Assembly: GCA_964393275.1 (NCBI GenBank)
Contig: CAYMTA010000009.1
Coordinates: forward strand, 53,544 to 117,543
DNA: 64,000 nt
Reading direction: 5' to 3'
Source of the DNA: an uncultured Geminicoccaceae bacterium
Lineage (GTDB): Bacteria; Pseudomonadota; Alphaproteobacteria; Geminicoccales; Geminicoccaceae
Made by a program: the position numbers and the translations under genes. Of the stretch, positions 1 through 14,058 are shown piece after piece. A model generated the notes under the pieces. The model saw nothing but the letters and a program-made list of their open reading frames with translations, was not told the origin of the DNA and did not search any database. Within the stretch, counting starts at the first letter, position 1; each line of letters starts with the position of its first letter.

Positions 1-150
1 GCCGCCCAGATCGACATCCGCGAAGGGCTCGCCGTCGCCTCGGACGGCTTCGTCGACGGCGATTTTCAGGTTCAGGTGGCCTCGACCGGCCTGGACGGCG
101 GCCTCTCGATCGGCTCCATGGTCAGCGAGGAGCCGGCCTTGGCCGCCTGA
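1..150 (+). CDS. 3' end of an unidentified CDS entering from the left edge
   Basis: Frame 1 is open from base 1 to TGA at 148-150 with GC-rich third positions. A hairpin terminator follows. Confidence 0.35.
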   Translation, partial: AAQIDIREGLAVASDGFVDGDFQVQVASTGLDGGLSIGSMVSEEPALAA

Positions 151-449: not shown

Positions 450-833
450 ATGCGTATGATTGCACTATCGCTCGTCTCGGGCGTTTGCCTGCTGGCCGCG
501 ACATCGGCCAATGCCGAAGGGGTAGCCCTCACCGATCACCAGCTCGACCAGGTGACCGCCGGCGCTCTCGAGCTTGGCGTCAGCCAATTGACGATGGGAA
601 CCATGTCTGCCAGCCGTTCGTTCGTCGCCTCGCCGCTGCTCCGCCAGGCAGTCAATGGCAGCCCAGCGCAACCTGACGAGAACCCACCCGTGCCTGCACA
701 GCCGGGCTTGCTGGAGATCATCTCGGGCGCATACTCCGATCAGAACAACGGCCAAGAGATTAGCAAGGCTCCTGTGCTAGGAAAGCTGTTCCTGTCACTC
801 CAGGTCTTCGGCCAGACTCCTTCTGCCCCATAG
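450..833 (+). CDS. Small secreted protein, VTAG-motif family paralog 1
   Basis: Internal ATG of the tracked ORF 255..833, preceded by GGGAG. Signal peptide MRMIALSLVSGVCLLAATSANA, then EGVALTDHQLDQVTAG (motif nt 528-563). Confidence 0.7.
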   Translation: MRMIALSLVSGVCLLAATSANAEGVALTDHQLDQVTAGALELGVSQLTMGTMSASRSFVASPLLRQAVNGSPAQPDENPPVPAQPGLLEIISGAYSDQNNGQEISKAPVLGKLFLSLQVFGQTPSAP

Positions 834-909
834 CCGCCGTCGGCGCATTGAACCTTGCTCGATGGGATCGAGCCGCTCTGACCAATGCAGAAAAAGGGGG
901 GAAGCCGTT

Positions 910-1356
910 ATGTCGCTCCTGAAAAAGGCGAGCGTTCTGTCAGCCTGTCTGCTGGCGACCGCCTCGATCGCCAACGCCGAGCAGGTCCGGTTGTCCATTG
1001 GCCAACTCGATCATGTCACAGCCGGCGCGATCTCGCCAATCTCGCCAATCTCGTCCATTTCGCCAATCCCGCCGATCGGTGGTGGGGCTGAGGCTCCCTC
1101 GCCCGGGGACCCGCCGGCGTCGACACCTGGACCGTCGGCACCCCCACCGGTTCGACTCACCCGGTCTGTGGGTGATGGCTCGGCTATGGCTTATGTGCCG
1201 ATAACGCCGGCCGGATCGATCACCGAGATCGGTCTCCGCGTCACACCCGGGCCCAATGGAACATCGGGCACCGCCTATGTCCGGGTGTCGTCGGAAGGCG
1301 GCGGCCCGATCACCTTGCCCGGCGTCAGCGCCACGGTTGTCCACAGCGGCAAGTGA
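910..1356 (+). CDS. Small secreted protein, VTAG-motif family paralog 2 (ISP-repeat, Pro-rich)
   Basis: Internal ATG of ORF 862..1356, preceded by GGGGGAAG. Signal peptide MSLLKKASVLSACLLATASIANA, then EQVRLSIGQLDHVTAG (nt 991-1026), followed by ISPISPISSISPIPPI. Confidence 0.7.
   Translation: MSLLKKASVLSACLLATASIANAEQVRLSIGQLDHVTAGAISPISPISSISPIPPIGGGAEAPSPGDPPASTPGPSAPPPVRLTRSVGDGSAMAYVPITPAGSITEIGLRVTPGPNGTSGTAYVRVSSEGGGPITLPGVSATVVHSGK
1030..1077 (+). repeat. Imperfect 9-bp tandem repeat (5 units, ATCTCGCCA-like) encoding (I-S-P)n
   Basis: Read directly: atctcgcca atctcgcca atctcgtcc atttcgcca atcccgccg atc. Confidence 0.8.
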
Positions 1357-1370
1357 GCTCGGATCAACCT

Positions 1371-3581
1371 CTACGTCGAAGCGCGTGATTGGGAGCAAAA
1401 GCGCTCCCACATCACGCGCAAGGCCCTTTCGATCTCGTGCCCAAAGAGCCGCTGATCGCAAAGCGCCGAGCTTGCCATGGCTTGGCGCTGGGCCGCGCGA
1501 TAATCGGCGAGACGCAATGGCTCCGTTGCCAGGCGGATGGCGATAGCAAGGTAGGCATCGGCGTTGCGCGCCACCCATTCCGGACGTCCGATAGCCCGAA
1601 GCAGGGTCTCGGTTTGCCTCGACACAGGCTGCCAGCCAGGCATGGTGACGATCGGCACTCCCATCCACAGGGCTTCGCAGCTCGTCGCCCCACCGCCGAA
1701 TGGAAACGGATCGAGGGCGATATCGACGTCGCCATACTGGCGCAGCACGGCAGCGTTGTCGGAAACACCACGCAGCTCGAGCCTGCCGTCCGAGACTCCG
1801 GCCCCGCGGATGGCCTCGCGTATCCTGGTCGCGACCGATGGATTGTCCAATGACGGCGACTTCAGGATAAGACGGGCAGTTGGCAACCGCTGGAGCAACC
1901 GGCACCAAAGCGCCAGCACTTCTCCTGTGAGCTTCGCCACATTGTTGAAGCTACCGAAGGTGATCCAGCCCTGGCGCAGCACGGGGGGCTCGGCGGGTTC
2001 CGGTGCGGTTGCCGGCGGCTCGTAGCAGAAGCGGCTGGGCGACAGGCGGATTACCCGTTCCGCGAAGAGCCCCTCCTCGCCCGGTGCAACGGCCACCTCG
2101 TCCATGATCGCATAATCGATCGCCTCCAGGCCGGTGGTGAACGGATAACCCAGCCAGGTTGCCTGGACCGGAGCCGGCTTGAGCGCGAAGCACCCGAGCC
2201 GGTTAAGCGCCGTGTGCCCGGATATGTCGATCAGGATGTCGATGCCGTCGGCGCGCACCTGCTCGGCCAAACGCCGATCCTCCATGCCGACGACCAAGCG
2301 CCAGCCATCCGCCAGCTCCTTGAACCGCGCGGTCATATTGTCTTCGCGGCCATTGCTCGAGTAGCAGATCACCGTGAAACGGCTGCGATTGAGCGCACGA
2401 AAAACAGCCATGAGCCAGTCACTTACCGCATGTCGGCAAAGCTCCGCCGAGACGATTCCGACCCGTAAGGGGCGAGTGGGGTCGGGGTCGTTCTGCCACT
2501 CCGTGAAACGGCCTGTCGGCTGGCCGAACCGTCGTCCCCACGCCGCGTGCTCCCGCGCGAGATCCTCCGGATGTTGGCTTGGATCGTAGAGGAGCGTGAG
2601 CAGCAGATTGCTATGGATGCGAGGATCATTCGGATCGATCGCGGAGGCACGCCGCAGGGCCGCCAGCGCATCGTCGATCAAACCCATGTCCCGCTTGATC
2701 TTGCCGATATTGTTGTAGGCGAAGGCGAAGTCGGGGCGTCGGGCCAGCACATCTTCATAACCTGCCAACGCTTCCTCGAAGCGGCCGAGCATCTCCAGCG
2801 TTTGAGCCCGATAGAAACGCGCGTCGAATTTCTCGGGGCTCAGCTCCAAGGCTCGGTCGAACGCAGCGAGCGCCGCCTGTCCCATCCCGTGGTCAATCTC
2901 GACCAGACCCAGCCCAATGAGAGCATAGACCGACTCCTCATGCTCCAGTGCCTGATCGAAGGCGTCCAACCCCTCCGCATAGCGGCCGAGCGCATGCAGG
3001 GCGTAACCCTTTTCGGCCCACGCACGACCGTGCTCCGGCGCACGCAGAAGAACAGCGTCGAGATCGGCGAGCGCGGCGTCGGGCTCTCCGGCGAGGCGCC
3101 GCGCCCCGGCTCGCGCAACGAGAATGTCGATGGAGCCCGGCACGGCCGCTAAGGCGGAATCGGCGGATGCAATGGCGGCTTCGTGTTGTCCGAGCTCCGC
3201 CAGGATGAGGATGCGCCATCGTTGGGCATCGATCATAGTCGGCTCGAGCTCAGTGAGCGACTCGAGCTTCGCCAGGGCGTCAGCACTGCGCCCAAAAGCG
3301 GTGAGGAGGATGGCAAGATTGTGCAAGGCCGAGACATAGCGCGGGTCCAAGGTGATTGCCCGCTCATAGGCTGCTATCGCCTCGGCCGGTTGCCCGATCG
3401 CGGTCAGGATGAACGCCTGAACACCATGGACGCGGGCGTACTCCGGATCCGCTTGGCTCGCCTCTCGCCAAAAGGCCTCGGCGCGGTCGTTCTCTCCCTG
3501 GTTGCACGCCGCCACGGCCAGATCGAGAAGCATGTCCAGCTCCGACCGTTCCCCGGACATCGCATGGCCAACCTCACGCAT
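1371..3581 (-). CDS. TPR-repeat protein with C-terminal GT41 (SPINDLY/O-GlcNAc-transferase-like) glycosyltransferase domain
   Basis: 736 aa with no signal peptide. The N-terminal half has many TPR-like repeats (AxxxYxxAlxldP pattern). The C-terminal half has the OGT/SPY-type pattern (GSFNNxxKL..., LDPFPFGGGATSCEALWMGVPIVT). Confidence 0.85.
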   Translation of the reverse strand: MREVGHAMSGERSELDMLLDLAVAACNQGENDRAEAFWREASQADPEYARVHGVQAFILTAIGQPAEAIAAYERAITLDPRYVSALHNLAILLTAFGRSADALAKLESLTELEPTMIDAQRWRILILAELGQHEAAIASADSALAAVPGSIDILVARAGARRLAGEPDAALADLDAVLLRAPEHGRAWAEKGYALHALGRYAEGLDAFDQALEHEESVYALIGLGLVEIDHGMGQAALAAFDRALELSPEKFDARFYRAQTLEMLGRFEEALAGYEDVLARRPDFAFAYNNIGKIKRDMGLIDDALAALRRASAIDPNDPRIHSNLLLTLLYDPSQHPEDLAREHAAWGRRFGQPTGRFTEWQNDPDPTRPLRVGIVSAELCRHAVSDWLMAVFRALNRSRFTVICYSSNGREDNMTARFKELADGWRLVVGMEDRRLAEQVRADGIDILIDISGHTALNRLGCFALKPAPVQATWLGYPFTTGLEAIDYAIMDEVAVAPGEEGLFAERVIRLSPSRFCYEPPATAPEPAEPPVLRQGWITFGSFNNVAKLTGEVLALWCRLLQRLPTARLILKSPSLDNPSVATRIREAIRGAGVSDGRLELRGVSDNAAVLRQYGDVDIALDPFPFGGGATSCEALWMGVPIVTMPGWQPVSRQTETLLRAIGRPEWVARNADAYLAIAIRLATEPLRLADYRAAQRQAMASSALCDQRLFGHEIERALRVMWERFCSQSRAST

Positions 3582-3643
3582 CCCGTTTCCGCAAGCCTTC
3601 CCAGCTTCCTGTCAAATATAGCAAACGGCAGACGCCCCACGCA

Positions 3644-3682
3644 CAAAAAAGAAGAGCCCCATCTTGTGATGAGGCTCTTCTG
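3644..3682 (-). terminator. Rho-independent terminator downstream of paralog 3
   Basis: On the minus strand: AGAAGAGCC-loop-GGCTCTTCT followed by TTTTTT. A second hairpin AACAGCG/CGCTGTT sits at 3688-3708. Confidence 0.75.
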
Positions 3683-3760
3683 ACTTCAACAGCGATGCAT
3701 CCGCTGTTCTAGGTCAGCCAGGCAACGCTTTCACGTCCCTGCCCGACCCGACAGGATGGC

Positions 3761-4135
3761 TCACGGTTGTGAGAACGACACCGAGCCGCTAACCGCCAAG
3801 GTGCCGCCCGAACGAACCCGACCGTTGTTGTTCAGGGAAGCGGCATCAATCTGGTTGGTGGCATAACCCTGCGTCGTGCGCACCGAGCTGAGCGAGGTGC
3901 CGATGGTGGCCGTGTTCGACGTGTTGCTCTTGCTCTCCGAAATCACGACCGCCTTGGTGGTGTTCCTGGTACGGACAGGACCGGTGATACCGAGGGCCAA
4001 ATCCAGATCCAGGTTGAGACCGGCGGTCACACCGTCCATCTGGCTGGCGCTGAGCTTCATGGGCTCGGCAGCCATGGCGCTGGTCGCCAGCAACGTGACG
4101 GCCGCACCGGCGAGAAACAGATTCTTCATCGACAT
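3761..4135 (-). CDS. Small secreted protein, VTAG-motif family paralog 3 (Ser/Thr/Asn-rich)
   Basis: AGGAGAAG RBS. Signal peptide MSMKNLFLAGAAVTLLATSAMA, then AEPMKLSASQMDGVTAG (nt 4019-4054). The mature part is rich in T/S/N/G/V. Confidence 0.75.
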   Translation of the reverse strand: MSMKNLFLAGAAVTLLATSAMAAEPMKLSASQMDGVTAGLNLDLDLALGITGPVRTRNTTKAVVISESKSNTSNTATIGTSLSSVRTTQGYATNQIDAASLNNNGRVRSGGTLAVSGSVSFSQP

Positions 4136-4212
4136 TGAGGCTTCTCCTAGGTTTTAGTCGGTACCGTCCACGACCGATCCATGTTTCGAAAGGTCAGTCG
4201 AGAACCTCGTGT

Positions 4213-4240
4213 GTCCGGCCGGGCCATTGCCCGGCCGGAC
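4213..4240 (-). terminator. GC-rich stem-loop at the stop of paralog 4 (no U-tract)
   Basis: GTCCGGCCGGG-ccattg-CCCGGCCGGAC, an 11-bp perfect stem abutting the TAG stop. Confidence 0.4.
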
Positions 4241-4593
4241 TAATTCGCAAAAACACCTGTGAGGACGCCACCACCACCAGCAGCCGAGGTGATGCCGACC
4301 CCGCTGGCCTTGACGGAGGTCTGAGAGATGGCGAGCGCCTGAAAGTCACCCGACGAGGACGGCGGCGTCAACAACACGCTTCCCTCCGTCTGGGTCAGCG
4401 AGACCTGATAGAGGGTGATCGACGCGCCGCGGGCTGTCGCCAGTCCCGTGCGAGAAATCGCAAAACCACTCCAGAGACCCGCCGCCGTGACCGAATCCAG
4501 CGATGCTGCATCCAGCCTGACCGGCTCGCCGGCAAGCGCCACGCTGCCGACGCCAAGGAGGGCGATGCCCACAAGTCCGTTCAAGATGCGCAT
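4240..4593 (-). CDS. Small secreted protein, VTAG-motif family paralog 4
   Basis: Internal ATG of ORF 4240..4743. Signal peptide MRILNGLVGIALLGVGSVALA, then GEPVRLDAASLDSVTAAG (nt 4477-4515). Confidence 0.65.
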   Translation of the reverse strand: MRILNGLVGIALLGVGSVALAGEPVRLDAASLDSVTAAGLWSGFAISRTGLATARGASITLYQVSLTQTEGSVLLTPPSSSGDFQALAISQTSVKASGVGITSAAGGGGVLTGVFAN

Positions 4594-4801
4594 GGGTTGA
4601 AACTTTCCTCTGGCACGATCGCAAAGCGACCACGAATTGCTTTCTGTTCCACCCTGACGCGGCCCAACCGCCCTGCAAGCACTGAATCGAAGCGGGAACT
4701 CCAATCCGAACAATAGCTTAGCTGGCTTCTTGGTCGCTGGCAACAGCCCTTTCGGATGATAGCCGAAGGTGGAACACCGGACATACAGGCTTCGAGGTCA
4801 G

Positions 4802-5254
4802 TTAAAAGATCGGGAACTCGCTGGCAACCGATGCCATGCCCACCGCGGCGACCTGCGCCGAGAAGAAGCCGGAGCCGTTAATTCTGACATTGATCGGAAT
4901 GGTCCAGACCTTCTGCCCGACGACATTGGTTGCGCCCACGCTCGCCGTTGCGGACGGCGGTGGTGCCACGCCACCAATGCCTATCGCCTTCGCCACGGCG
5001 ACGCCCTTCGTGACCGACAGCGACGGATTGCTGGTGCCCACCACGGTGCTCTCGAACGAGGCTTCCGAGCCCACGGTGCCCCAGGCTTGAGCGGCACCAT
5101 TCAGCGTGAAGCCGGAGACGGCGCCCGCGGTCACCGAGTCCATCTGGACCGCGTCGAGCCGCATGGGCTCGGCGGCCTGCGACGAGACGAGCGGCAGCGC
5201 CACACCCAAGGCGGCCAGCAGCGCCGCCCTCTTGGGGAAACCGGAAATCCGCAT
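4802..5254 (-). CDS. Small secreted protein, VTAG-motif family paralog 5
   Basis: Internal ATG of ORF 4802..5314. Signal peptide MRISGFPKRAALLAALGVALPLVSSQA, then AEPMRLDAVQMDSVTAG (nt 5123-5158). The C-terminus ends in ...EFPIF. Confidence 0.7.
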   Translation of the reverse strand: MRISGFPKRAALLAALGVALPLVSSQAAEPMRLDAVQMDSVTAGAVSGFTLNGAAQAWGTVGSEASFESTVVGTSNPSLSVTKGVAVAKAIGIGGVAPPPSATASVGATNVVGQKVWTIPINVRINGSGFFSAQVAAVGMASVASEFPIF

Positions 5255-5404
5255 CGCGTTCACCTCTCTATACTTCTCTGTCTCAGGCCGTCCTGGCCGA
5301 AGGAACCCATCCAACCGATCGCCCCGACATCTAAAATCCGGAGGCCGTGGTGATCAGAACCTTGTGTGGGGAAGATGCCAGCATTTTCCCCAATCGCGCA
5401 ACTT

Positions 5405-5431
5405 GTTCAAAAGGTCATACGACTTTTGAAC
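5405..5431. promoter_or_regulatory. Perfect 9-bp inverted repeat GTTCAAAAG-N9-CTTTTGAAC in the divergent low-GC intergenic region
   Basis: Read directly. Lies between paralog 5 (minus) and the C39 peptidase gene (plus). The TTAAGCTTAA palindrome at 5451-5460 is nearby. Confidence 0.5.
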
Positions 5432-5737
5432 CATTGAGCCGCGTCGAGGATTAAGCTTAACAGCCCGACACTTAATGGCTGGATGGAACAAGGAGTGATT
5501 TAAACTTATAGTTTAATCGCATCAGCCGCCGATGAACTTCTCGCATCGGGCTGGCACAGCCTGCCATGCCGGGAGCGCCGACGGACAGGCGATTCTTCGG
5601 GTCTGGGGCGCCAGATGGTTGCTTGGTCGCCCGGCGTGGCATTAGGGTAACGACCGGTCGCGTTCGCCATGAGCGGCATGCGCGGGAGTTGACCGTTTCG
5701 ACGGTTGATCTCTATCCCGCGTGGAGGAGGGAAAGTT

Positions 5738-6367
5738 TTGACGCACGCGAGCAGGCGGAGGTTTCTCGTCGGCGGTGCTCTTTTGGCGATGGGCGCTACC
5801 ACGCCGGGCTTAGCCGCGGCGCGGTCGGTCGAGAGCCTCAACGAGCGGCGCCACCATCAGGTCGTGATTCAGGAATTCGACATCAGTTGCGCCGCCGCCG
5901 CGCTGGCGACGCTGCTGACCTATCAGCATGGCGACCCCGTAACCGAGCGCCAGATCGCGCTGGGTCTGATCGATCGGCCGGAATACATCGAGAACCCGGC
6001 CTTGATCCGCCTGCGTCAGGGCTTCTCGCTGCTCGACCTGAAGCGCTTCGTGGATGGCCGTGGCTACGAGGGCATCGGCTTCGGCCAGCTCAGCTACAGC
6101 GATCTGCTCGAGCGGGCGCCGATCATCGTGCCACTCGACCTGCACGGCTTTCGACATTTCGTGGTTTTTCGTGGCGAGCTGGGCGACAGCGTCCTGCTCG
6201 CCGACCCGGCTTTCGGCAATCGCACCATGAGCCGGGAACGGTTCGAGCAGGCCTGGATCGATTTCCCGCAGATCGGCCGGGTCGGCTTTGTCGTCGAGCG
6301 GCGCGATGGCCTGATTCCGCCGAACCGCCTGGAGCCGACCTTGGCCGAGTTCCTCGTCATTCGCTGA
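5738..6367 (+). CDS. Stand-alone periplasmic C39-family cysteine peptidase (Tat signal)
   Basis: TTG start 6 nt after GGAGGAGGG. N-terminus is THASRRRFLVGGALLAMGATTPGLAAA (twin-arginine). Has the catalytic-type pattern QEFDISCAAAALATLL (Gln...Cys), and later HFVVF and ADP (His/Asp). Confidence 0.8.
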   Translation: MTHASRRRFLVGGALLAMGATTPGLAAARSVESLNERRHHQVVIQEFDISCAAAALATLLTYQHGDPVTERQIALGLIDRPEYIENPALIRLRQGFSLLDLKRFVDGRGYEGIGFGQLSYSDLLERAPIIVPLDLHGFRHFVVFRGELGDSVLLADPAFGNRTMSRERFEQAWIDFPQIGRVGFVVERRDGLIPPNRLEPTLAEFLVIR

Positions 6368-6391
6368 CCCTCATCAGAAGTGGTAGACTTC

Positions 6392-7570
6392 ATGCACCGT
6401 CGGCAACCGACCTCGACACGAGCACCGAACCTGCGGATCACGACCGTGGCGACGGCCGCCCTGCTGCTGCATTTGTCCGGCCCCGTCGCGGCCCAGGACA
6501 CAGGCACGGTCAGCGACCAGACCCTGCAGGAGGAGCTCAAGGCTCGCGACGCCGTGATCATCGAGCTGATGCACCGGGTCGACGAGCTCGAGCGGCGGCT
6601 GGGGGGAACGGAGGCGCCACCGGTCGCGGCGAAGGCCGCGCCGGCCCAGCCCGGGGAAGCACCGCCACCGGTCGAATCCGCCGAGGCGCCAGCCCCGGCA
6701 CCCGCCTCTCGTGGCCTGATCGATGTCGACGAGCTCGCCGCGGAGCGTGCGCTGGAGCGCACCCTGGTCGATGTGGGCGCGCTATTGCTGCCCGCCGGCC
6801 AGTCGGAGCTCGCGCCGGCGGCCGGCTTCACGCGACGCGATTCGAACTTCCCCACCCTCATCGGCGGGCAGGTCGTCAATGCGAACACCGAGCGCAACGA
6901 ATTCGCCTTCGACCTGGGCCTGAGCGTCGGACTGCCCTTCGATTCGCAGTTCGAGCTCAACCTGCCGTTCGATCTGGTCAACGAGCAGGGCAATCTGGAC
7001 ATCAACGGGGGCGTCGCGAGCTCAACCGAGCGCACCGGCTACGGGCTCGGTGACATCACGCTCGGCTTTGCCAAGACGCTGCTGCGCGAGGGTGAATGGC
7101 GGCCCGACCTCGTCGGCCGCGTCGTCTGGGACACGGCCACGGGCGATCAATTCGACGACGGGGTCTACCTCGGCAACGGCTTTCACCAGGTCAGCGGGCA
7201 GCTCGTCGCCGTCAAGCGCCAGGACCCGCTCGCCTTCGTCGGCGGCTTCACCTACAGCTACGCGTTCGAGGACGACGATATCAAGCTGGGCAGCGAGTAT
7301 GCCTTGTCGCTGGGCGCGGCCCTGGCCCTCAGCCCCGAGACATCGCTGAACGTCGCCCTCAATCAGACCTATTCCGACGATATCGAGGTCGACGGCGAGA
7401 AGGTCAACGGCAGCGATCAGCTGGCCGCCAGCTTCGACTTCGGCGGCTCGGCGATTATCGCGCCGCGCACGCTCTTCAGGTTGAACACCAGCATCGGCCT
7501 GACCGATGACGCGCCCGACTACTCCGTCCGCGCCACGGTTGCCTACCGCTTCAACACACCATTCTTCTGA
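6392..7570 (+). CDS. Outer-membrane beta-barrel protein with N-terminal coiled coil and Ala/Pro linker (FapF-like / MetA-pathway-type barrel architecture)
   Basis: Signal peptide ...LLLHLSGPVAAQD. Heptad-like segment DQTLQEELKARDAVIIELMHRVDELERRL, then an AP-rich linker. Alternating beta-strand pattern ending ...ATVAYRFNTPFF with a terminal Phe. A GTG at 6380 is an alternative start. Confidence 0.7.
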   Translation: MHRRQPTSTRAPNLRITTVATAALLLHLSGPVAAQDTGTVSDQTLQEELKARDAVIIELMHRVDELERRLGGTEAPPVAAKAAPAQPGEAPPPVESAEAPAPAPASRGLIDVDELAAERALERTLVDVGALLLPAGQSELAPAAGFTRRDSNFPTLIGGQVVNANTERNEFAFDLGLSVGLPFDSQFELNLPFDLVNEQGNLDINGGVASSTERTGYGLGDITLGFAKTLLREGEWRPDLVGRVVWDTATGDQFDDGVYLGNGFHQVSGQLVAVKRQDPLAFVGGFTYSYAFEDDDIKLGSEYALSLGAALALSPETSLNVALNQTYSDDIEVDGEKVNGSDQLAASFDFGGSAIIAPRTLFRLNTSIGLTDDAPDYSVRATVAYRFNTPFF

Positions 7571-8351
7571 CGGCCGCGAGGTGGCGTTGCGCCAGGAGCG
7601 CCACCTCGGTCCGGTTCTTGGCATTCAGTCGCCGCATGATCTGCCGGACATGCACCTTGACGGTGCTCTCGGTCATCCGCAGGCGGGTGGCGATCACCTT
7701 GTTCGGATGCCCTTCCTGGAGGATCTCCAGAACATCGACCTGCCGCGGCGTCAGCTCTTGTGACAGCGCCGGGCCGTCCGGGGCCGACTCGCTCGCCACG
7801 TCGCCGAGGGCGGGACGTCCCTCCTGCCTGAGCCACTGGCTGACGAGATCGCCCGGCACGAACATGCCGCCGGCCTGCACCAGGGACAGCGCCCTGCACA
7901 TCAGCGGCGCCTCCTCGGAGGTCGCGATGAAACCCATCGCACCGGCCGCCAGGGCGTTGCGCGCCTCCTCCGGCTCGGTGCGATCGGACAGCACGACCAC
8001 CGGCACCGAGTCGTGGTTGCCGACGAGGCGATCGAGGTCCGCGCGGGTGGCCGGGTCGTCGATCGACAGGCTGCCGACACTGTAGATGATCAGCGAGGGC
8101 CGGCCTTCCGGGGGCAGACCCTCGCGGGTCAGCTCGTCGACGGACACGGCGACGATCTGCTGGCTGAGCGCATCCGAGGCGCAGAGATAGCGCGAGATGC
8201 AAACCCGGCTGAACGGCCGGGGGTCGACGAGAGCCAGCCAGGGGTCGGGGCGCGGGGCAACCCCTGCTGGGACCGCACGAATCGCCCCGGAGGCTCTCGT
8301 TAGGGTGTCAGTGCCTGGCAGTGGATTGTTCGCTGATGACGTCGCTAACAT
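7551..8351 (-). CDS. LuxR/FixJ-type transcriptional regulator with degenerate receiver-like N-terminal domain
   Basis: C-terminal HTH: LTPRQVDVLEILQEGHPNKVIATRLRMTESTVKVHVRQIMRRLNAKNRTE. The ATG at 8351 is preceded by AAGGGGAG. The receiver-like region lacks an obvious DD pair or phospho-Asp context. Confidence 0.75.
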   Translation of the reverse strand: MLATSSANNPLPGTDTLTRASGAIRAVPAGVAPRPDPWLALVDPRPFSRVCISRYLCASDALSQQIVAVSVDELTREGLPPEGRPSLIIYSVGSLSIDDPATRADLDRLVGNHDSVPVVVLSDRTEPEEARNALAAGAMGFIATSEEAPLMCRALSLVQAGGMFVPGDLVSQWLRQEGRPALGDVASESAPDGPALSQELTPRQVDVLEILQEGHPNKVIATRLRMTESTVKVHVRQIMRRLNAKNRTEVALLAQRHLAAVRRMVC

Positions 8352-8741: not shown

Positions 8742-9446
8742 TCAACGCTTGCAAAGCTCATGACGGCTCTTGAGCATGAACGGCCTGTCGACGGATTCTT
8801 GCGCAAAGACGGTGATCGCGTCGATAGCCAGCGCCCGGCTTTCGATCACCATGGCGTGATCGCGCAGGAACTCGAGCAATCGGCATCGCTCCTGCTCGCC
8901 CAGTCGTTCGGTCAAGGTCATGTGGAAACGGAAGTCGTCGAGGACGAAAGGATAGCCGTATTGCCTCAAATGGCTGTCCTGTCGCGGTGACAGCCCTCCT
9001 TGGCGTCGCCTCGCGATCTCGTCGACACTGGCGGGGGCCCGGAAGCAATCGAAGGATCGCACACAGTCGGCAGCGAGCTCGTCCAGGGCAGGAGCCGGCG
9101 CGCTCGGCGTGAGGGCGATGAAGCCGTCGAGATCGGTCACCTTCAAGGGTGGTGCCGCAACGGCCGAACGCAGGGATGCGAATTGGCCCGCTGCCGCCGC
9201 CAGGTCGTCCACCGTCCGTCCCTCGGCGAGCCGGAAGGGAGCCTTGAGCGTGGCGTGAAAGCCATAGTGTCTGGGCGACCTGGTGATCTCGCGCAGACGC
9301 GCGCTGGTGAACCCGGGCACACGTGGCTGCGACAGCGTCGTTTCTGTCCAACTGTGCCGCCCGAGCCACGTCGCGCCGAAACGCTCCAGCTCGCTCCCTG
9401 CTGCCGGCGCGAAATAGATGGCATATCGGCCACTCACGCTATCCAT
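8742..9446 (-). CDS. DUF1045 / 2H-phosphoesterase-type putative phosphonate metabolism protein
   Basis: N-terminus is RYAIYFAP...HYGFHATLKAPF with a second ...FRFHMTLT motif (two H-x-T-type motifs). Located next to phnM, as is typical for this family. Confidence 0.7.
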   Translation of the reverse strand: MDSVSGRYAIYFAPAAGSELERFGATWLGRHSWTETTLSQPRVPGFTSARLREITRSPRHYGFHATLKAPFRLAEGRTVDDLAAAAGQFASLRSAVAAPPLKVTDLDGFIALTPSAPAPALDELAADCVRSFDCFRAPASVDEIARRRQGGLSPRQDSHLRQYGYPFVLDDFRFHMTLTERLGEQERCRLLEFLRDHAMVIESRALAIDAITVFAQESVDRPFMLKSRHELCKR

Positions 9447-9455
9447 GCGTCCCGC

Positions 9456-10646
9456 TCAGGCAACGCGACGCCTCTCGACCAGAACTTCGCGAACGATCGG
9501 CCGCCCGCGGATCGGCTTGACGCGGAGAAGGTCAGCGCGCAGCCCCGGAGCGATCCTGCCACGATCCTCGAGCCCGGCGATGACGGCCGGTCGCCACGAC
9601 ACCATGGCGATGGCCCGGGCCAGCGGCAGGCCGAAAGGCGCCTCGGCCAGTGCAAAGGCGCCCTTGAGCAGGCTCGCCGGGATGTAGTCCGAAGCCAAAA
9701 GATCCAAAAGGCCGCCGGACACCAGATCCCCTGCGGCGACATTGCCTGAATGCGAGCCGCCACGCAGCAGGTTGGGAGCACCCATCAATGTCGGCAGGCG
9801 CAGCTCGTGCGCCGCCATGGCCGCCTCGATCGTGGTGGGGAATTCGCTGAAGGCCGCGCCGAGGGCGACCGCCTCCTCGACATGCGCCGCCCTGGCATCG
9901 TCATGCGTGGCAAGCGGGATCCGCCATTGGCGGGCCAGGGCGGCGAGGGCGCGGCGATTGGGTGGCGCAAAGGTCCGCGATCCCTCGAGCAGCCGCGCGA
10001 TATGCGCCTCGACCCGTTCCGCCTGCCCGAGGATGCGTCGATAGCGCCGACGGTAGGCCTCGATGTCGGGCGTCTGGCGGTCACCAGGCGCATGATCCAT
10101 GAGCGAGAGCATGGCGACCGGGTGCGCCCTGGCATGCTTCTCGAGCGTTTGGACGACATCCGGGTGGGTGACCTCGCAACGGAGGTGAACACGGTGATCG
10201 ACGCGCAGCATCCCGTGGACGCGCGCCTCGTCGAGACCCTCGAGCATCGGCTCGATCATCTCGGCGCGAACATCCCAACCTTCGGTCGCCCCGATGGTCA
10301 GGCTGTCATACACCGTCGTGATGCCTGCCGATGCCACTTGGCCGTCATGGGCAATGGCTGCCGCCACGGGATCCCAGGTCACCCCGGAGCGCGGCTGGAA
10401 ATGCTTCTCGAGATTGTCGGTGTGCAGATCGACGAGCCCGGGCAGCAGGTAATCGCCGTCGAGGTCGATGGCGCCGGGCAGCGACGTCCGGCCGGTGTCG
10501 ACAGCCTCGATCAGTCCACCTGCCAGAACGACGGTTCCCCGCTCGACGGTCTCTTCGAGAACGATCAGGGCGTTCGTCAGCACGATGGCTTCGGCAGCGC
10601 CGATGGACCGCCTCCGCGCCTCGTGGGTGATCGGGTCTGGTGCCAT
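9456..10646 (-). CDS. phnM: Alpha-D-ribose 1-methylphosphonate 5-triphosphate diphosphatase PhnM
   Basis: Strong motif identity to E. coli PhnM: LLPGLVDLHTDNLEKHF, HLRCEV, LSLMDHAPGDRQ, ATHDDA, EFPTT, LMGAPNLLRGGSHSGNVAA, LASDYIPASLL. Start is uncertain (10646, 10673 or 10736). Confidence 0.9.
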   Translation of the reverse strand: MAPDPITHEARRRSIGAAEAIVLTNALIVLEETVERGTVVLAGGLIEAVDTGRTSLPGAIDLDGDYLLPGLVDLHTDNLEKHFQPRSGVTWDPVAAAIAHDGQVASAGITTVYDSLTIGATEGWDVRAEMIEPMLEGLDEARVHGMLRVDHRVHLRCEVTHPDVVQTLEKHARAHPVAMLSLMDHAPGDRQTPDIEAYRRRYRRILGQAERVEAHIARLLEGSRTFAPPNRRALAALARQWRIPLATHDDARAAHVEEAVALGAAFSEFPTTIEAAMAAHELRLPTLMGAPNLLRGGSHSGNVAAGDLVSGGLLDLLASDYIPASLLKGAFALAEAPFGLPLARAIAMVSWRPAVIAGLEDRGRIAPGLRADLLRVKPIRGRPIVREVLVERRRVA

Positions 10647-10696
10647 GCTCACGTCCGTGCCGGTCGGCCTCATCCCGAGGGGACAGGCGGCCGTGG

Positions 10697-11047
10697 CTAG
10701 CGCTGGCGCCACTGCCCGTCGGCGCCGAGCACCCATTCACCCGGGCGTGCCCGCTCGACCAGCCTTTCGCCCGCCAACTGCGCCACGACCTCGAGCGCCA
10801 CGCCCTGCCGTTCGGCGATGGCGGCGTACTCGGCCCGACGGCCGGCGTTGATCTCCCCGGCAAGGGCCCGCACCTCGGGCGGGGCATCGGCCTTGACCAC
10901 GCCGACAAAGCCGTCGATCCGCTCACCGAGCTGACCGGCGGCCTTGGCCCCGGCCAGATCCTGGGCTCCGGCCGGCCCTGGCAGGCCGAGAAGCACGAGC
11001 ATGCCACCCCACACAACGATGGCACGGCGGGCGATCTTCCTGCGCAT
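10697..11047 (-). CDS. ydbL: YdbL-like periplasmic protein (DUF1318)
   Basis: Internal ATG followed by a signal peptide. AKAAGQLGERIDGFVGVV...INAGRRAEYAAIAERQGV is typical of YdbL/DUF1318. Sits in ynbE/ydbH context. Confidence 0.7.
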   Translation of the reverse strand: MRRKIARRAIVVWGGMLVLLGLPGPAGAQDLAGAKAAGQLGERIDGFVGVVKADAPPEVRALAGEINAGRRAEYAAIAERQGVALEVVAQLAGERLVERARPGEWVLGADGQWRQR

Positions 11048-11055
11048 CACGTGAT

Positions 11056-11241
11056 CTAGCCTCCGAAGAGCTCGGGATCTTCCAGGAGCTCGTCGAGGTC
11101 GCGCTCGACGCGGACCCGGACCTCCTGCTCGATCTTGACATTCAGGTTGATGACGATCGGATCCTTGGGCGCCTCGAGCTTGACGGTCGGCTGGCAGCCG
11201 AGAAGAGCGGCAACCAGTGGCGGGATGACCCAAAGCGAAAT
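11056..11241 (-). CDS. ynbE: YnbE-like small lipoprotein (start codon unresolved)
   Basis: Tail of the spurious long ORF 11056..12024: ISLWVIPPLVAALLGCQPTVKLEAPKDPIVINLNVKIEQEVRV..., with a lipobox LLGC. No in-frame ATG/GTG/TTG lies upstream of the lipobox; only ATT at 11239-11241 and CTG. Confidence 0.55.
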   Translation of the reverse strand: MSLWVIPPLVAALLGCQPTVKLEAPKDPIVINLNVKIEQEVRVRVERDLDELLEDPELFGG

Positions 11242-11275
11242 CCTGGTGCGTGGGGCGGCGAGACCGACCTGCCGT

Positions 11276-12352
11276 TCACCGTGCCAGCTCCCGCAAGGCG
11301 CGACGCAGCCGGATCGGCAGCTCGAACGCGTTTCGCCCGGCACTGACGAGGCCGAGGATCGGCGCTTCGAGGCTGAGATTGAGCTCAATGGGCTGGTCCT
11401 CGTAAAGCTCGGGATTGGCGCCATGCAGGTGCAACGCCACAGCGATGTCGCCGTCAAGGAAGCCCTCGAACGTCGCGACAGCCGCATCGTAGCGGAAATT
11501 GGCGAGGGCGGCGATGAGGAGATCGACGTTCGCCCCCTGGCTCTCCAGGAGAGGCGGCGGACTCTGCGGTCGATAGCGGATGATGCCCGGGCCTCGCGCC
11601 TCGAGGTGGCCCTGCTCGATATGCATCCGGCCCAACTCGTTGAAGCTGAAGACGAGATCGGCATCCATGATGCCTTCGACCGTGAGCTCGTCGATTTCGA
11701 GGCCATCGACCAGTCGTCCAAAATCGAGCCCCTCGACCCGAAGCTTCTGCGGCATGGCCGTCCGCGGCGGCCAGAGGCGATCGAGCCGGATCGACCCGTT
11801 GATCGGCCCGACCTCGCCATAGTCGGTGACGAATGCGAGCCCGGTGATGGTGAGCGCCAGATCGGCCGCTTCCGGCTGACCCCGCTGCCAGTCGAGGGCA
11901 AGATCGATCGTGCCTCGCGCATCACCGAGCACATCCTCGAAGCCGGACCAGAGACGGACCGGCTGCAGCGCGCCCGGCTCGAAGCGCAGCGGCTCCATCG
12001 CGATCGCAATCCGATCCAGAGCACCGCCGTCGCCGGCCCCGTTGAAGCGCAGCACGAGCTCCCCTTTGGCGCTCGCCATCACGCCGTCCATTCGCCAGCC
12101 GGTGGCCGCCGGGCCGATCCGCAGGCTGGCCCAGAGCGGGATTATGCCCGCTGGTCCCTCGATCCGATCGACGCTGAGCGCCAGGGGTGCGCCCGGTCGA
12201 CGCTCGAGCCCGACACGGGACAGCACCACCGACCACTCGTCATAGGCAATGCCGAGCCTGCCGATCCGCACGGTTTCCGGCAGCCAGGCGGCGCCAGCGG
12301 TCGAGGCGAGCAGCACCCAGCCGCCGAGCACGCCGCCGGCGAGAAGCCTCAA
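11276..12352 (-). CDS. Short YdbH-like (AsmA-family, dicarboxylate-transport-domain) protein
   Basis: The C-terminal region resembles YdbH family proteins, and the gene sits with ynbE and ydbL. The proposed TTG start at 12352 overlaps the ppk2 stop (TTGA) and gives an N-terminal TM segment MRLLAGGVLGGWVLLAS. About 358 aa. Confidence 0.6.
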   Translation of the reverse strand: MRLLAGGVLGGWVLLASTAGAAWLPETVRIGRLGIAYDEWSVVLSRVGLERRPGAPLALSVDRIEGPAGIIPLWASLRIGPAATGWRMDGVMASAKGELVLRFNGAGDGGALDRIAIAMEPLRFEPGALQPVRLWSGFEDVLGDARGTIDLALDWQRGQPEAADLALTITGLAFVTDYGEVGPINGSIRLDRLWPPRTAMPQKLRVEGLDFGRLVDGLEIDELTVEGIMDADLVFSFNELGRMHIEQGHLEARGPGIIRYRPQSPPPLLESQGANVDLLIAALANFRYDAAVATFEGFLDGDIAVALHLHGANPELYEDQPIELNLSLEAPILGLVSAGRNAFELPIRLRRALRELAR

Positions 12353-13386
12353 CCGCGACGGACGCGCTGCCGCCTCGGGTGCACGCTCGCGTCCAGAATA
12401 TGCGCCGCGGCGCCAATGACCTGTCCGCTCGCGCCAACGATCAGCGGGTCCGGCGCGTGCACCAGGGCGTCGTCCTTGTCCGGATAGGGCAGCAGATAGA
12501 GAAAATGCCGAAGCGTCTCCAGCCGCGCCCGCTTCTTGTCGTCCGACTTCACGACCGTCCATGGCGCGTCCGCGGTGTCCGTGTAGAAGAACATCGCCTC
12601 CTTCGCCTCGGTGTAGTCGTCCCATTTGTCGATCGATGCCACATCCATGGGTGAGAGCTTCCACTGCTTGAGCGGATCGTGCTCACGTGCGGCGAACCTG
12701 CGGCGCTGCTCCTCGCGGGTAACCGAGAACCAGTACTTGAACAGCCAGGTTCCCGTGCGGACCAGCATGCGCTCGAATTCCGGGCACTGCCGCATGAACT
12801 CGAGATAGTCGTTGGGCCTGCAGAAGCCCATGACCCGCTCGACGCCGGCCCGGTTGTACCAGGAGCGGTCGAAGAAGACGATCTCGCCGCCGGCCGGCAG
12901 ATGCTGGACATAGCGCTGGAAATACCACTGCGTCCGCTCCCGCTCGCTCGGCTTCTCCAGCGCCACGACCCGGGCACCCCTGGGATTGAGATGCTCCATG
13001 AAGCGCTTGATGGTGCCACCCTTGCCTGCCGCGTCGCGCCCTTCGAAGATGACCACCACCTTCTGCGCCGTCGCCTTGATCCAGGACTGCGCCTTGAGCA
13101 GCTCGGCCTGCAGCTCGAGCTTGTGCGCCTCGTAGGCGCGGCGCGCCATTCGGGTCTTGTAGGGATACTCGCCCGTCTCGAACAACCGCCGAACCGCACC
13201 GGGATCACGTTTTATCTCGGCGAGATGATGACGGGCGAGCGTTGCCCGGCTGATCCGCTCGTCACCGGACGCGACCGGCGCATCCTCATCCGTCGGGACA
13301 GCGGCGTCGGCCGTTTCCTCGGCCGTTTCCTCGGCCGTTTTGGACATCTCGCCCACGCCTGCCCGCACCGCATCCTTCGTCGTCAT
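12349..13386 (-). CDS. ppk2: Polyphosphate kinase 2
   Basis: VVIFEGRDAAGKGGTIKRFMEHLNPRG (Walker A), FDRSWYNRAGVERVMGF, LKQWKLSPMD. Confidence 0.9.
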   Translation of the reverse strand: MTTKDAVRAGVGEMSKTAEETAEETADAAVPTDEDAPVASGDERISRATLARHHLAEIKRDPGAVRRLFETGEYPYKTRMARRAYEAHKLELQAELLKAQSWIKATAQKVVVIFEGRDAAGKGGTIKRFMEHLNPRGARVVALEKPSERERTQWYFQRYVQHLPAGGEIVFFDRSWYNRAGVERVMGFCRPNDYLEFMRQCPEFERMLVRTGTWLFKYWFSVTREEQRRRFAAREHDPLKQWKLSPMDVASIDKWDDYTEAKEAMFFYTDTADAPWTVVKSDDKKRARLETLRHFLYLLPYPDKDDALVHAPDPLIVGASGQVIGAAAHILDASVHPRRQRVRRG

Positions 13387-13482
13387 GGCGCGCCGCCCCT
13401 TGCCGATCGCCAGCTCTTGGGTTTGCCCATCATGGCATCGTCACTGCCCCTTTGAGCGCGGTCGAGCCCGCATCGCCCGACG

Positions 13483-14058
13483 CTACTTCATGGGATCGAC
13501 CACGAGGGCGATGACCTCGACCAGCGTCACCTGCACGGTATCGCCCGGCTTCAGCGTCTCGACGAAGGCACGCATGTCCGGGTCCCGCACCGGCAATGAA
13601 CGCTCGGGCCCCTCCTGGGGCTTGAAGGTGACGCGGCCGGTGTCCGCGTCGAACGCCTCGAAGACGACGCTGGTGTCGAGGGTCGTCACCGTGGCGCCGG
13701 CCGGCCTCTCGCCCTCCGGCGCGCGCGCCAGGGCCGAATCGGCCTGAGGCGTGATCGGCGCGGCGCCGGGCGCGACGAGGCTCGCGATGAGGCCGCCATA
13801 ATAGCCGATGGTCACCGTGTCGCCGACCTTGACCTGCGGCAGGTTCCGCACCTCGGGGGGAGCCACGACGGTGACGAAACGGCCGTCCTCGGTCTCGAGC
13901 AGCACCTGCCTCGTCTTCAGGTCGACATCGTGCACCACGGCGCTGCTGATCGCCGTCTGCTCGACGACCGCGCCTTCCTGCGCCCAGCCGCTCGGGACAG
14001 CGAGGAGCCCGACACAAATGGCGGCGCAGATCGCATAAGCGTAACGAAGCTTCCACAT
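13483..14058 (-). CDS. Hypothetical secreted protein
   Basis: Internal ATG (MWKLRYAYAICAAICVGLLAVPSGWA signal peptide). No family recognised. Confidence 0.5.
   Translation of the reverse strand: MWKLRYAYAICAAICVGLLAVPSGWAQEGAVVEQTAISSAVVHDVDLKTRQVLLETEDGRFVTVVAPPEVRNLPQVKVGDTVTIGYYGGLIASLVAPGAAPITPQADSALARAPEGERPAGATVTTLDTSVVFEAFDADTGRVTFKPQEGPERSLPVRDPDMRAFVETLKPGDTVQVTLVEVIALVVDPMK

Follow-up and report, generated by a model that had tools for sequence, protein, structure and literature searches.

Two described secretion systems join a stand-alone C39 peptidase to an outer-membrane channel. In the functional-amyloid (Fap) system, FapD is periplasmic and its catalytic cysteine is required for the FapF-dependent secretion of FapC (PMC5557850). 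In the account of Rouse et al., the 12-stranded barrel of FapF is preceded by a trimeric coiled coil at the N-terminus, a linker that is disordered and a plug helix (PMC5557850). The same authors reported that the Fap proteins are without canonical C39 sequences, that the target of FapD is unclear and that the class of periplasmic C39 peptidases is uncharacterised (PMC5557850). The nap island of Neisseria encodes the double-glycine (GG) peptides NapA-C, the C39 peptidase NapP, the FapF homologue NapF and the regulator NapR, and mediates autolysis; in the NapP/NapF model, the GG peptides undergo periplasmic cleavage and are exported through the channel (PMC11798529). Here, we describe a related locus from an uncultured Geminicoccaceae bacterium, located at positions 450-8351 of a stretch of 64,000 nucleotides (nt) of contig CAYMTA010000009.1 (the window), in which a C39 peptidase and a FapF-type barrel are accompanied by five genes for small exported proteins. 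A first-pass annotation had presented this locus as a candidate undescribed system. That description does not hold, as Fap is known, the Neisseria nap island is published (PMC11798529) and NCBIfam carries FilB and FilC models for a 'putative pilus system'; the kind of system is already described through Fap and Nap. The core of the earlier interpretation, a FapD/FapF-like secretion module with novel substrates that is conserved across genomes, was nevertheless right. In our view, the locus probably encodes a Fap/Nap-type module dedicated to export in two steps, and its cargo most likely forms an extracellular matrix or fibre. A literature search returned only the Fap and Nap papers and none on the present subfamily or its motif, although coverage was incomplete and absence is unproven.

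The locus comprises nine genes, the positions of which in the first-pass annotation agree with the listing of open reading frames (ORFs) and with start-codon mapping, and hidden Markov model (HMM) searches of Pfam and NCBIfam recovered Peptidase_C39, PF13557, Glyco_transf_41 with TPR, and GerE. The features are as follows, with lengths in amino acids (aa):

450-833 (+): sp1, small prepro-protein of 127 aa; signal peptide 1-22; propeptide EGVALTDHQLDQVTAG (nt 516-563); mature part 89 aa.
910-1356 (+): sp2, small prepro-protein of 148 aa; signal peptide 1-23; propeptide EQVRLSIGQLDHVTAG (nt 979-1026).
1371-3581 (-): TPR and GT41-family glycosyltransferase, 736 aa, without signal peptide, cytoplasmic.
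3681-3650 (-): intrinsic-terminator-like hairpin with a 14-bp stem and a T-run, downstream of sp3.
3761-4135 (-): sp3, small prepro-protein of 124 aa; signal peptide 1-22; propeptide AEPMKLSASQMDGVTAG (nt 4019-4069); S/T/N-rich mature part of 85 aa.
4240-4593 (-): sp4, small prepro-protein of 117 aa; signal peptide 1-21; propeptide GEPVRLDAASLDSVTAA (nt 4480-4530); mature part 79 aa.
4802-5254 (-): sp5, small prepro-protein of 150 aa; signal peptide 1-27; propeptide AEPMRLDAVQMDSVTAG (nt 5123-5173); mature part 106 aa.
5738-6367 (+): stand-alone C39 cysteine peptidase, 209 aa when counted from TTG 5738, in an ORF that opens at 5705.
6392-7570 (+): FapF-type outer-membrane barrel, 392 aa, beginning 24 nt after the end of the peptidase gene; signal peptide, helix forming a coiled coil (nt 6515-6604), Pro/Ala linker without order, plug helix (nt 6731-6775), barrel (nt 6800-7555) and C-terminal F.
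7551-8351 (-): LuxR/GerE-type regulator, 266 aa, with a degenerate receiver-like N-terminal domain.

The five small proteins align poorly outside their signal peptides and a single motif. When the 64-kb window is translated in all six frames, the pattern [LM]D.[VI]T[AG][AG] is found exactly five times, once per small protein, against an expectation of 0.045 (the mean of 200 codon-block shuffles). In each protein it closes a segment of 16-17 residues that starts right after the A-x-A signal-peptidase site, giving the propeptide consensus (A)EPxxL[TS]xxQ[ML]DxVTAG behind a Sec-type signal peptide; the processing layout of sp3, with slashes at the boundaries, is ...SAMA / AEPMKLSASQMDGVTAG / LNL.... 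Recognition of double-glycine leaders follows the consensus Leu(-12)-X3-Glu(-8)-Leu(-7) before the double Gly (PMC6363468). The register of the small-protein leader is identical, with L-12, E/Q-8, L/M-7 and V/I-4 followed by A-G in the place of the usual G-G, G-A or G-S, and these positions, together with small residues at -2 and -1, are likewise found in the PCAT/AMS leaders of colicin V, class II microcins, bacteriocins and ComC. The colicin V leader MRTLTLNELDSVSGG presumably resembles LTxxQMDSVTAG closely. The shared motif would thus be a double-glycine-type leader placed behind a Sec signal, and this appears to be the mechanistic key of the system; a Sec signal, a GG-type propeptide and a cargo domain together make the architecture of the precursors tripartite. 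The first-pass annotation had correctly assigned a Sec signal to each of the five proteins and had noted one short shared motif, which is real but amounts to more than a short string, its nature as a leader having been overlooked. An NCBIfam scan of the five proteins gave no leader or bacteriocin family at E <= 0.1.

The leader is conserved far beyond this locus. A scan of one genome per GTDB species identified 342 relatives of the peptidase, and the neighbourhoods of 80 loci were examined. From these, 162 unique leaders were gathered using positions -7 to -1 only. Outside this search pattern, Leu is present at -12 in 99%, Pro at -15 in 72%, Glu at -16 in 62% and Gln or Glu at -8 in 73%; inside it, the leaders have M/L at -7, V/I at -4, Ala at -2 (96%) and Gly at -1 (87%), with TAG, TGG, TAA, VAG and SAG as leader variants. 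A search with the leader HMM (in which sp1 scores 25.3 bits and sp3 32.0 bits), combined with a hydrophobic-segment filter, found 243 ORFs with a signal peptide and leader in 72 of the 80 loci, at 1-7 per locus (mean 3.3). More than half (139/243) lie within 2 kb upstream of the peptidase gene and none lies beyond 8 kb, and the propeptide measures 16-17 residues in 169 of them by a crude A-x-A rule. The eight loci without leader ORFs are mostly truncated upstream. In one group of loci, from Noviherbaspirillum and Keguizhuia (L029 at 11035-13800; L032, L038, L045, L065 and L074), the substrates are encoded downstream of the peptidase.

The peptidase matches Pfam Peptidase_C39 (E = 2e-10), and its best NCBIfam matches are FilB (4e-28) followed by FapD (C39_FapD, 2e-25). 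In an alignment of 17 diverse homologues, the catalytic residues Gln56, Cys62, His151 and Asp167 are invariant, and a conserved C-terminal tail extends past the Pfam domain. A profile of the family finds one solved relative, 6MPZ, the double-glycine motif protease domain of LahT. The window protein and its nearest relatives carry SRRRFLV before a hydrophobic stretch, resembling a twin-arginine signal. This sequence is included only if translation starts at TTG 5738, preceded by the ribosome-binding site GGAGGAGGG, or further upstream; TTG 5738 is most likely the start of the gene. The public gene call for an identical peptidase (P0001, 192 aa) begins downstream of SRRRFLV, the closest homologues (208-209 aa) retain it and distant members have Sec-like N-termini. 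With a Tat-like or a Sec-like signal alike, the peptidase is predicted to be exported. The earlier description of a Tat-targeted stand-alone C39 peptidase therefore stands as regards export and an intact C39 domain, whereas the twin-arginine assignment depends on the choice of start and is not shared by the Sec-like distant members.

The peptidase family is tight: even for members that carry the label of another class or phylum, identity to the window protein is 54-65%, against 29-38% for Aeromonas FapD, Acinetobacter FilB, Neisseria NapP and a Fap-like peptidase of Cupriavidus. The closest database relatives of both the peptidase and the barrel are from Geminicoccaceae (Alphaproteobacteria) genomes. 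Among metagenome-derived proteins, the family comprises at least 4,659 clusters at 90% identity (E <= 1e-5). Clustering at 50% identity gives 270 clusters at E <= 1e-30, 1,322 at <= 1e-10 and 2,347 at <= 1e-3, the weaker tiers of which take in other C39 types. Some relatives have long C-terminal extensions (P0272, P0275, P0283, P0288, P0293, P0296 and P0277), including some with Sel1 repeats, one with LysM and several (584-760 aa) with low-complexity tails. Two of these long proteins, P0272 and P0283, were considered as peptidase-barrel fusions; they show no similarity to the barrel and are not Rosetta-stone fusions, and no barrel fusion is among the other extended relatives either.

The barrel protein matches PF13557 ('MetA-pathway of phenol degradation', E = 2e-10) and the NCBIfam FapF model (4e-15), and a sequence search of the PDB returned only FapF (5e-7). 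Its AlphaFold2 (AF2) model, with a predicted local distance difference test (pLDDT) score of 80, consists of a helix at residues 46-75, a disordered region at 77-114, a second helix at 118-132 and a barrel at 141-392 with 12-13 strand segments assigned by DSSP, and thus roughly 12-stranded. In a Foldseek comparison with the PDB, the top 18 matches were all FapF chains, with E-values down to 3e-18 and a template-modelling (TM) score of 0.82 for the best match; normalised to FapF, the matches have TM scores of 0.77-0.83, root-mean-square deviations of 2.5-4.9 Å and 21-22% identity. The next match was the COG4313 channel 4RL8 (E = 1.6e-13, TM 0.71-0.73), with autotransporter barrels much lower. 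A set of 35 homologues shares a common layout, in which a signal peptide is followed by a helix rich in heptads (L..L..RDAVI.EL.RRVE.LERRL), a linker that is rich in Pro/Ala and varies in length, a strongly conserved plug segment and the barrel, finishing in ...RF..P.F. In the plug segment, VDExAAERALERTLV..GALLLP, the RALER core and the flanking D, L, G and LL positions are invariant. The first-pass annotation had proposed a barrel with an N-terminal coiled coil and likened the pair of proteins to FapD and FapF; the model has the coiled coil that an ordinary uptake porin would lack, and the sequence and structure matches bear out the likeness.

A peptidase site in the linker of the barrel was also considered. 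The window protein and its close relatives have RRLGG after the coiled coil, yet this is not conserved across the family and the candidate was rejected. One barrel homologue, in L018 (12146-13990, -), has an extra N-terminal domain of ~200 aa and, directly after the coiled coil, LSSLDLDRVTAGG, a near-perfect copy of the substrate leader and the sole full leader-like motif at that spot; a possible cut by FapD in the linker of FapF has been the subject of published speculation, which this feature brings to mind.

The association of peptidase, barrel and leader-bearing genes is strict. The 80 loci derive from Alphaproteobacteria (Geminicoccaceae, Defluviicoccus, Pelagibius and other Rhodospirillales), from Methylobacter, other Methylococcales, Nitrosospira, Nitrosomonas, Noviherbaspirillum, Keguizhuia, Thiohalocapsa and Nitrococcus, and in a few cases from bins labelled Acidobacteriota, Gemmatimonadales or Spirochaetales. 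Among the cultured carriers are Methylobacter marinus A45 (L009), M. luteus (L051), Methylotetracoccus oryzae (L010), Nitrosospira briensis Nsp8 (L013), Nitrosomonas communis Nm44 (L073), Noviherbaspirillum autotrophicum TSA66 (L032) and Pelagibius litoralis DSM 21314 (L061). A barrel homologue lies near the peptidase in 71 of them, usually immediately downstream; in the Noviherbaspirillum/Keguizhuia group, as in a few other loci, the two genes are on opposite strands and a few kb apart. Loci without a barrel homologue are on contigs that end too early, with the addition of L049. A LuxR-type regulator homologue is present in 33-34 loci, mostly convergent just downstream of the barrel, and a TPR-GT41 gene in 15-16, all of them alphaproteobacterial and mostly with the gene among the small genes upstream of the peptidase. 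All-against-all clustering of the 80 loci gave no further shared family, and no conserved immunity-like, holin or ABC gene was found across them. As no other family is shared, the conserved core consists of the substrates, the peptidase and the barrel, and the LuxR-type and TPR-GT41 genes are accessory. The system of the first-pass annotation is accordingly narrowed to this core, which is kept together across genomes. Some genomes have several copies (2-3) of the module, as seen in one Geminicoccaceae bin (L018, L050 and L077) and one gammaproteobacterial bin (L020 and L030).

Comparison with Fap shows both a common plan and clear differences. The two share a stand-alone exported C39 peptidase beside a FapF-fold channel with coiled coil, disordered linker and plug helix, and both have Sec-dependent substrates, those of Fap crossing the outer membrane unfolded (PMC5557850). 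However, the window peptidase is only ~30% identical to Aeromonas FapD and the barrel 21-22% identical to FapF, and the NCBIfam scores fall under the equivalog cut-offs (89 bits against 330 for FapD and 55 against 700 for FapF), so that the peptidase is best placed, judging by its sequence, in the FapD superfamily and not as an equivalog. A Pfam and NCBIfam scan of the locus found no FapA, FapB, FapC or FapE; the small proteins have no internal repeats of the Fap type, which in FapB and FapC are imperfect and N/Q/G-rich, and the window substrates are short, diverse and equipped with an explicit double-glycine-type propeptide. In three loci, a second, more Fap-like operon adjoins the system (L014, 11973-16004; L043, 11939-14473; L053, 12149-16614), that of L014 matching FapD at 1e-37 and FapF at 9e-43. 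In these three loci, in the comparison locus of Cupriavidus CH34 (L082, 3692-9310) and in the fap locus of Aeromonas (L083, 3427-7810), the protein in the FapE position, between peptidase and barrel, has a signal peptide followed by a GG-like motif; examples, with a slash after the motif, are DDELDKLRGG/F, DSDLATLCGG/F, RLEESRGG/F and GELAHLRGR/Y. Such a motif would fit FapE as a substrate of FapD.

The closest published gene set to that of the locus is Nap, in which the genes for a stand-alone C39 peptidase, a FapF-type channel and a regulator likewise have several small GG-motif precursors as neighbours. The Nap peptides, however, resemble microcins, being cationic and below 10 kDa in size; no Sec signal has been described for them and a holin was suggested for the passage of the inner membrane (PMC11798529). 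In contrast, the window precursors have a Sec signal before the leader and a larger, mostly neutral or acidic cargo; the peptidase is ~32% identical to NapP, and no holin (NapH) or immunity-like (NapI) family is conserved in the 80 loci.

The Fil genes of Acinetobacter, which encode FilA, the C39 peptidase FilB, the barrel FilC and FilD-F and are annotated in NCBIfam as a 'putative pilus system', are related through FilB, the best NCBIfam match of the peptidase. Nevertheless, the scores are far below the cut-offs (98 bits against 475 for FilB and 23 against 630 for FilC), the small proteins do not match DUF6160, and the loci have no FadL-like FilD, FilE/FilE_C or FilF. The FilA protein of A. 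baumannii (L081, 4646-5515; DUF6160, 3.5e-9) has a signal peptide followed by MDDAALSAATGQ / MQSMDDAALSAATGQDG, a segment that aligns in the same register as LxxxQMDxVTAG, with M/L at -12, L/M at -7 and T at -3, so that a propeptide of a related kind may serve the 'pilus' subunit of Fil. No functional characterisation of the Fil system was found in the literature.

The proteases of PCAT transporters (LahT, ComA and PCAT1) have the same fold and catalytic residues as the window enzyme, the nearest solved structure by sequence being 6MPZ. Unlike these, the window protease is a free periplasmic protein of 209 aa and not a domain fused to an ABC transporter and acting at the cytoplasmic face; there is no ABC transporter in the loci. 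As the leader is internal, behind a Sec signal, processing would take place after transit of the inner membrane rather than during it; export is predicted to proceed through a beta-barrel rather than a TolC-type duct, and the cleavage dipeptide is A-G. Finally, the PF13557/COG4313 uptake channels for hydrophobic substrates have the same barrel fold, from which the present family is set apart by its conserved coiled coil, linker and plug and by its linkage to the peptidase.

The cargo domains are highly diverse behind their constant leader. Their median length is 80 aa (10th-90th percentile 50-109, overall span ~45-190), and their composition is dominated by A (14%), G (12%), S (11%), T (10%) and V (8.5%); charged residues make up ~11% and the net charge has a median of -1. 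In the window, the cargo domains measure 79-109 aa with net charges of -2 to +3. The five small proteins match no Pfam or NCBIfam family at E <= 0.1, and are in this sense not members of any characterised family of unrelated function; among ten diverse cargo examples, a single one touched DUF6160 (E = 0.073). A homology search with the five proteins returned 21 close relatives, all 'hypothetical' and without a Pfam domain. Orthologues of sp5 are 45-96% identical and conserved over their full length, and all end in ASVASEFPIF (window 4802-4831), an aromatic C-terminus that recalls the C-terminal signals of outer-membrane proteins; only ~16% of all cargo domains end in F, Y or W. The AF2 monomer model of sp5, built with nine orthologues, has a pLDDT of 34 and no confident fold, which is compatible with an unfolded monomer, the alignment being too shallow to inform the model. 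Pelagibius-type loci encode patterned, beta-like cargo (e.g. ...VNFDTNVVKTVDIxKxV...), and the cargo of the Noviherbaspirillum/Keguizhuia group consists of 41-56-aa peptides with the common pattern ..Q.N.SPVTVVQ.NAL..G.GN.S.VQSGNF..R., loosely recalling curlin repeats; in one group of 44-56 aa, the sequence reads Q.N.SPVTVVQ.NAL..GSGN.S.VQSGNF. In sp2, the mature part includes an (ISP)n/Pro-rich stretch, ISPISPISSISPIPPI, encoded by a 9-nt tandem repeat in four overlapping copies (1030-1077), which could be a spacer of variable length. A count of cargo families by BLAST without composition correction was discarded as unreliable, since low-complexity similarity lumped 146 of 238 domains together.

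The locus and its relatives combine tripartite precursors, an intact exported C39 enzyme and a FapF-fold channel with coiled coil and plug, all in strict linkage. From these components, a route of export can be proposed. The Sec signal peptide would carry each small prepro-protein over the inner membrane, where signal peptidase I would cut after A-x-A and expose the N-terminal propeptide of 16-17 residues, the conservation and register of which match those of GG leaders. Its positions L-12, Q/E-8, M/L-7, V/I-4, A-2 and G-1 correspond to those by which GG leaders dock as a short helix in the hydrophobic groove of C39 domains. By homology, the periplasmic peptidase would bind the propeptide helix via -4, -7 and -12 and cut after A-G. 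The unfolded cargo would then pass through the FapF-like channel, a function suggested by the fold of the barrel and the known role of FapF, and, more speculatively, cleavage may be coupled to, or may license, hand-over at the coiled coil and linker. Once released, the proteins would most likely assemble into a matrix or fibre layer outside the cell that is amyloid-like or beta-rich in the manner of the Fap substrates, which is the least certain step. Expression is probably governed by the LuxR-type regulator and, in Alphaproteobacteria, the TPR-GT41 enzyme may, speculatively, glycosylate S/T-rich precursors in the cytoplasm before export. Small GG-motif proteins are described as acting in cyanobacterial biofilm formation (PMC4997328).

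Several observations weigh against the proposed export route and its fibre or matrix cargo. Recognisable amyloid repeats of the Fap or curli type are not found in the cargo, as the first-pass annotation had already observed for the five small proteins, and the low AF2 confidence of sp5 may reflect merely its nine-sequence alignment. Cleavage is predicted at A-G (sometimes A-A), where canonical leaders have G-G, G-A or G-S. On the complete chromosome of Methylobacter sp. sgz302048 (L028, 9770-11847), a peptidase and barrel are found with no leader ORF within 10 kb on either side; its substrate genes may lie in another part of the genome, or this may be an orphaned module. Sequons for N-glycosylation (N-X-S/T) are not enriched in the cargo of GT41-containing loci (0.94 vs 1.10 per 100 aa, p = 0.75). 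As the substrate of FapD is itself unknown, the analogy with Fap is incomplete, and cleavage, export and extracellular location are inferred throughout the subfamily. Lastly, Nap, the closest characterised GG-peptide module, exports active peptides and not fibres (PMC11798529).

This last point leads to the main rival to a fibre or matrix function, namely that the same machinery secretes active peptides, such as microcin-like toxins, autolysis or death peptides as in nap, or signalling peptides. Class II microcins, bacteriocins and peptide pheromones have double-glycine leaders as their hallmark (PMC6363468), and Nap, a system that mediates autolysis, joins GG peptides to a C39 peptidase, together with a FapF homologue and a regulator. 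The several hypervariable paralogues per locus behind a constant leader, the frequent linkage of a LuxR-type regulator and the presence of exactly two Cys in 52 of 238 cargo domains would also suit such a role. However, only 12% of the cargo has a net charge of +3 or more and the median is -1, whereas the Nap peptides are cationic and, at <10 kDa, differ from a cargo that spans 45-190 aa; no conserved immunity-like, holin or ABC gene accompanies the system in the 80 loci, and the composition is of low complexity (A/G/S/T/V) and not amphipathic. We regard secretion of active peptides as rather unlikely, though it is the explanation that comes nearest to the fibre or matrix function that we favour.

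A less probable scenario, which we would give only a slim chance, is that the small proteins remain in the envelope after maturation by the peptidase and that the barrel is a PF13557/COG4313 small-molecule uptake channel that merely shares the operon. The match to PF13557, the second rank of the COG4313 channel 4RL8 among the structural matches and the ...EFPIF end of the sp5 orthologues all fit this scenario. Nevertheless, FapF is clearly the better match (E = 3e-18 against 1.6e-13; TM 0.82 against 0.71), the FapF-like coiled coil, linker and plug are conserved in the 35 homologues, and the peptidase-barrel pair with adjacent substrates is kept over alpha-, beta- and gammaproteobacteria. Although GC-rich DNA yields spurious ORFs (70 of at least 70 aa are listed within 12 kb) and all database relatives are annotated 'hypothetical', the notion that the motif and small ORFs are chance features or mis-called genes is refuted by the motif count (5 against 0.045), by the conservation of leader positions, by the clustering of 243 signal-plus-leader ORFs beside the peptidase in 72 loci of different classes, by orthologues conserved over their full length and by the presence of ribosome-binding sites, and deserves practically no credence.

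Beyond the function of the cargo, it is conceivable, at close to even chances, that the Sec signal together with (A)EPxxLxxxQMDxVTAG constitutes a portable bipartite tag for a general route, leading from Sec through a periplasmic C39 'gatekeeper' to a FapF-type channel, for diverse cargo in environmental Proteobacteria. If this is true, the subfamily would be the clearest natural example of substrate choice by FapD/FapF-type machines, and the FapE-position proteins (ELxxLRG[GR]) and FilA (LSxxTGQ) would use degenerate versions of the same signal. The subfamily predicts the substrates, the cut site (after VT-A-G, with docking residues at -4, -7 and -12) and the route to the periplasm (Sec); in the founding Fap paper, the peptidase's substrate and recognition sequence were left open, as was the crossing of the inner membrane in the Nap paper. 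These predictions are directly testable in cultured methanotrophs, ammonia oxidisers and Noviherbaspirillum. Since the system is common (342 matches among GTDB representatives and at least 4,659 clusters), its cargo may contribute, so far without being recognised, to the cell surface or biofilm matrix of bacteria of environmental importance, and the propeptide could serve as an engineering tag for export across the outer membrane.

Both accessory genes are confirmed as first annotated. The protein encoded at 1371-3581 matches Glyco_transf_41 (E = 7e-44) and TPR families and has no signal peptide, in keeping with a cytoplasmic enzyme; its match to NGT (1e-12) is far under the cut-off. HMW1C-type and FlmG-type TPR or GT41-like enzymes modify secreted adhesins and flagellins ahead of export. 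In the present system, the S/T content of the cargo is slightly higher in GT41 loci (22.8 vs 20.4%), a difference confounded by phylogeny, and the link between GT41 and cargo is one of synteny only. The regulator at the end of the locus has a GerE helix-turn-helix (E = 4e-17), and the 3' ends of its gene and the barrel gene share 20 nt (7551-7570); the same convergent arrangement is found again in related alphaproteobacterial loci.

A purine-rich ribosome-binding site precedes the ATG of all five small genes, and the divergent gap between sp5 and the peptidase gene measures 483 bp. Scans of the locus for sigma-70 promoters and terminators were at or below background, and the hairpin at 3681-3650 (-), the only intrinsic-terminator-like site detected, is probably the end of the sp5-sp4-sp3 transcription unit or units. 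A search upstream of the small genes for promoter or operator repeats in common gave none, and the sole DNA repeats between these genes are the leader-coding segments. Beyond the locus, positions 8742-10736 (-) hold a DUF1045 gene and an amidohydrolase gene that resemble carbon-phosphorus (C-P) lyase (phosphonate) genes and are unrelated to the system. At its other side, positions 1-147 (+) of the window are the final 49 codons of a large adhesin-like gene, the orthologue of which in L001 (1473-4481) encodes 1003 aa from the start of the open stretch, or 973 aa from its first ATG, with five Big_9/cadherin-like repeats; this gene lies directly upstream of sp1 in six close relatives.

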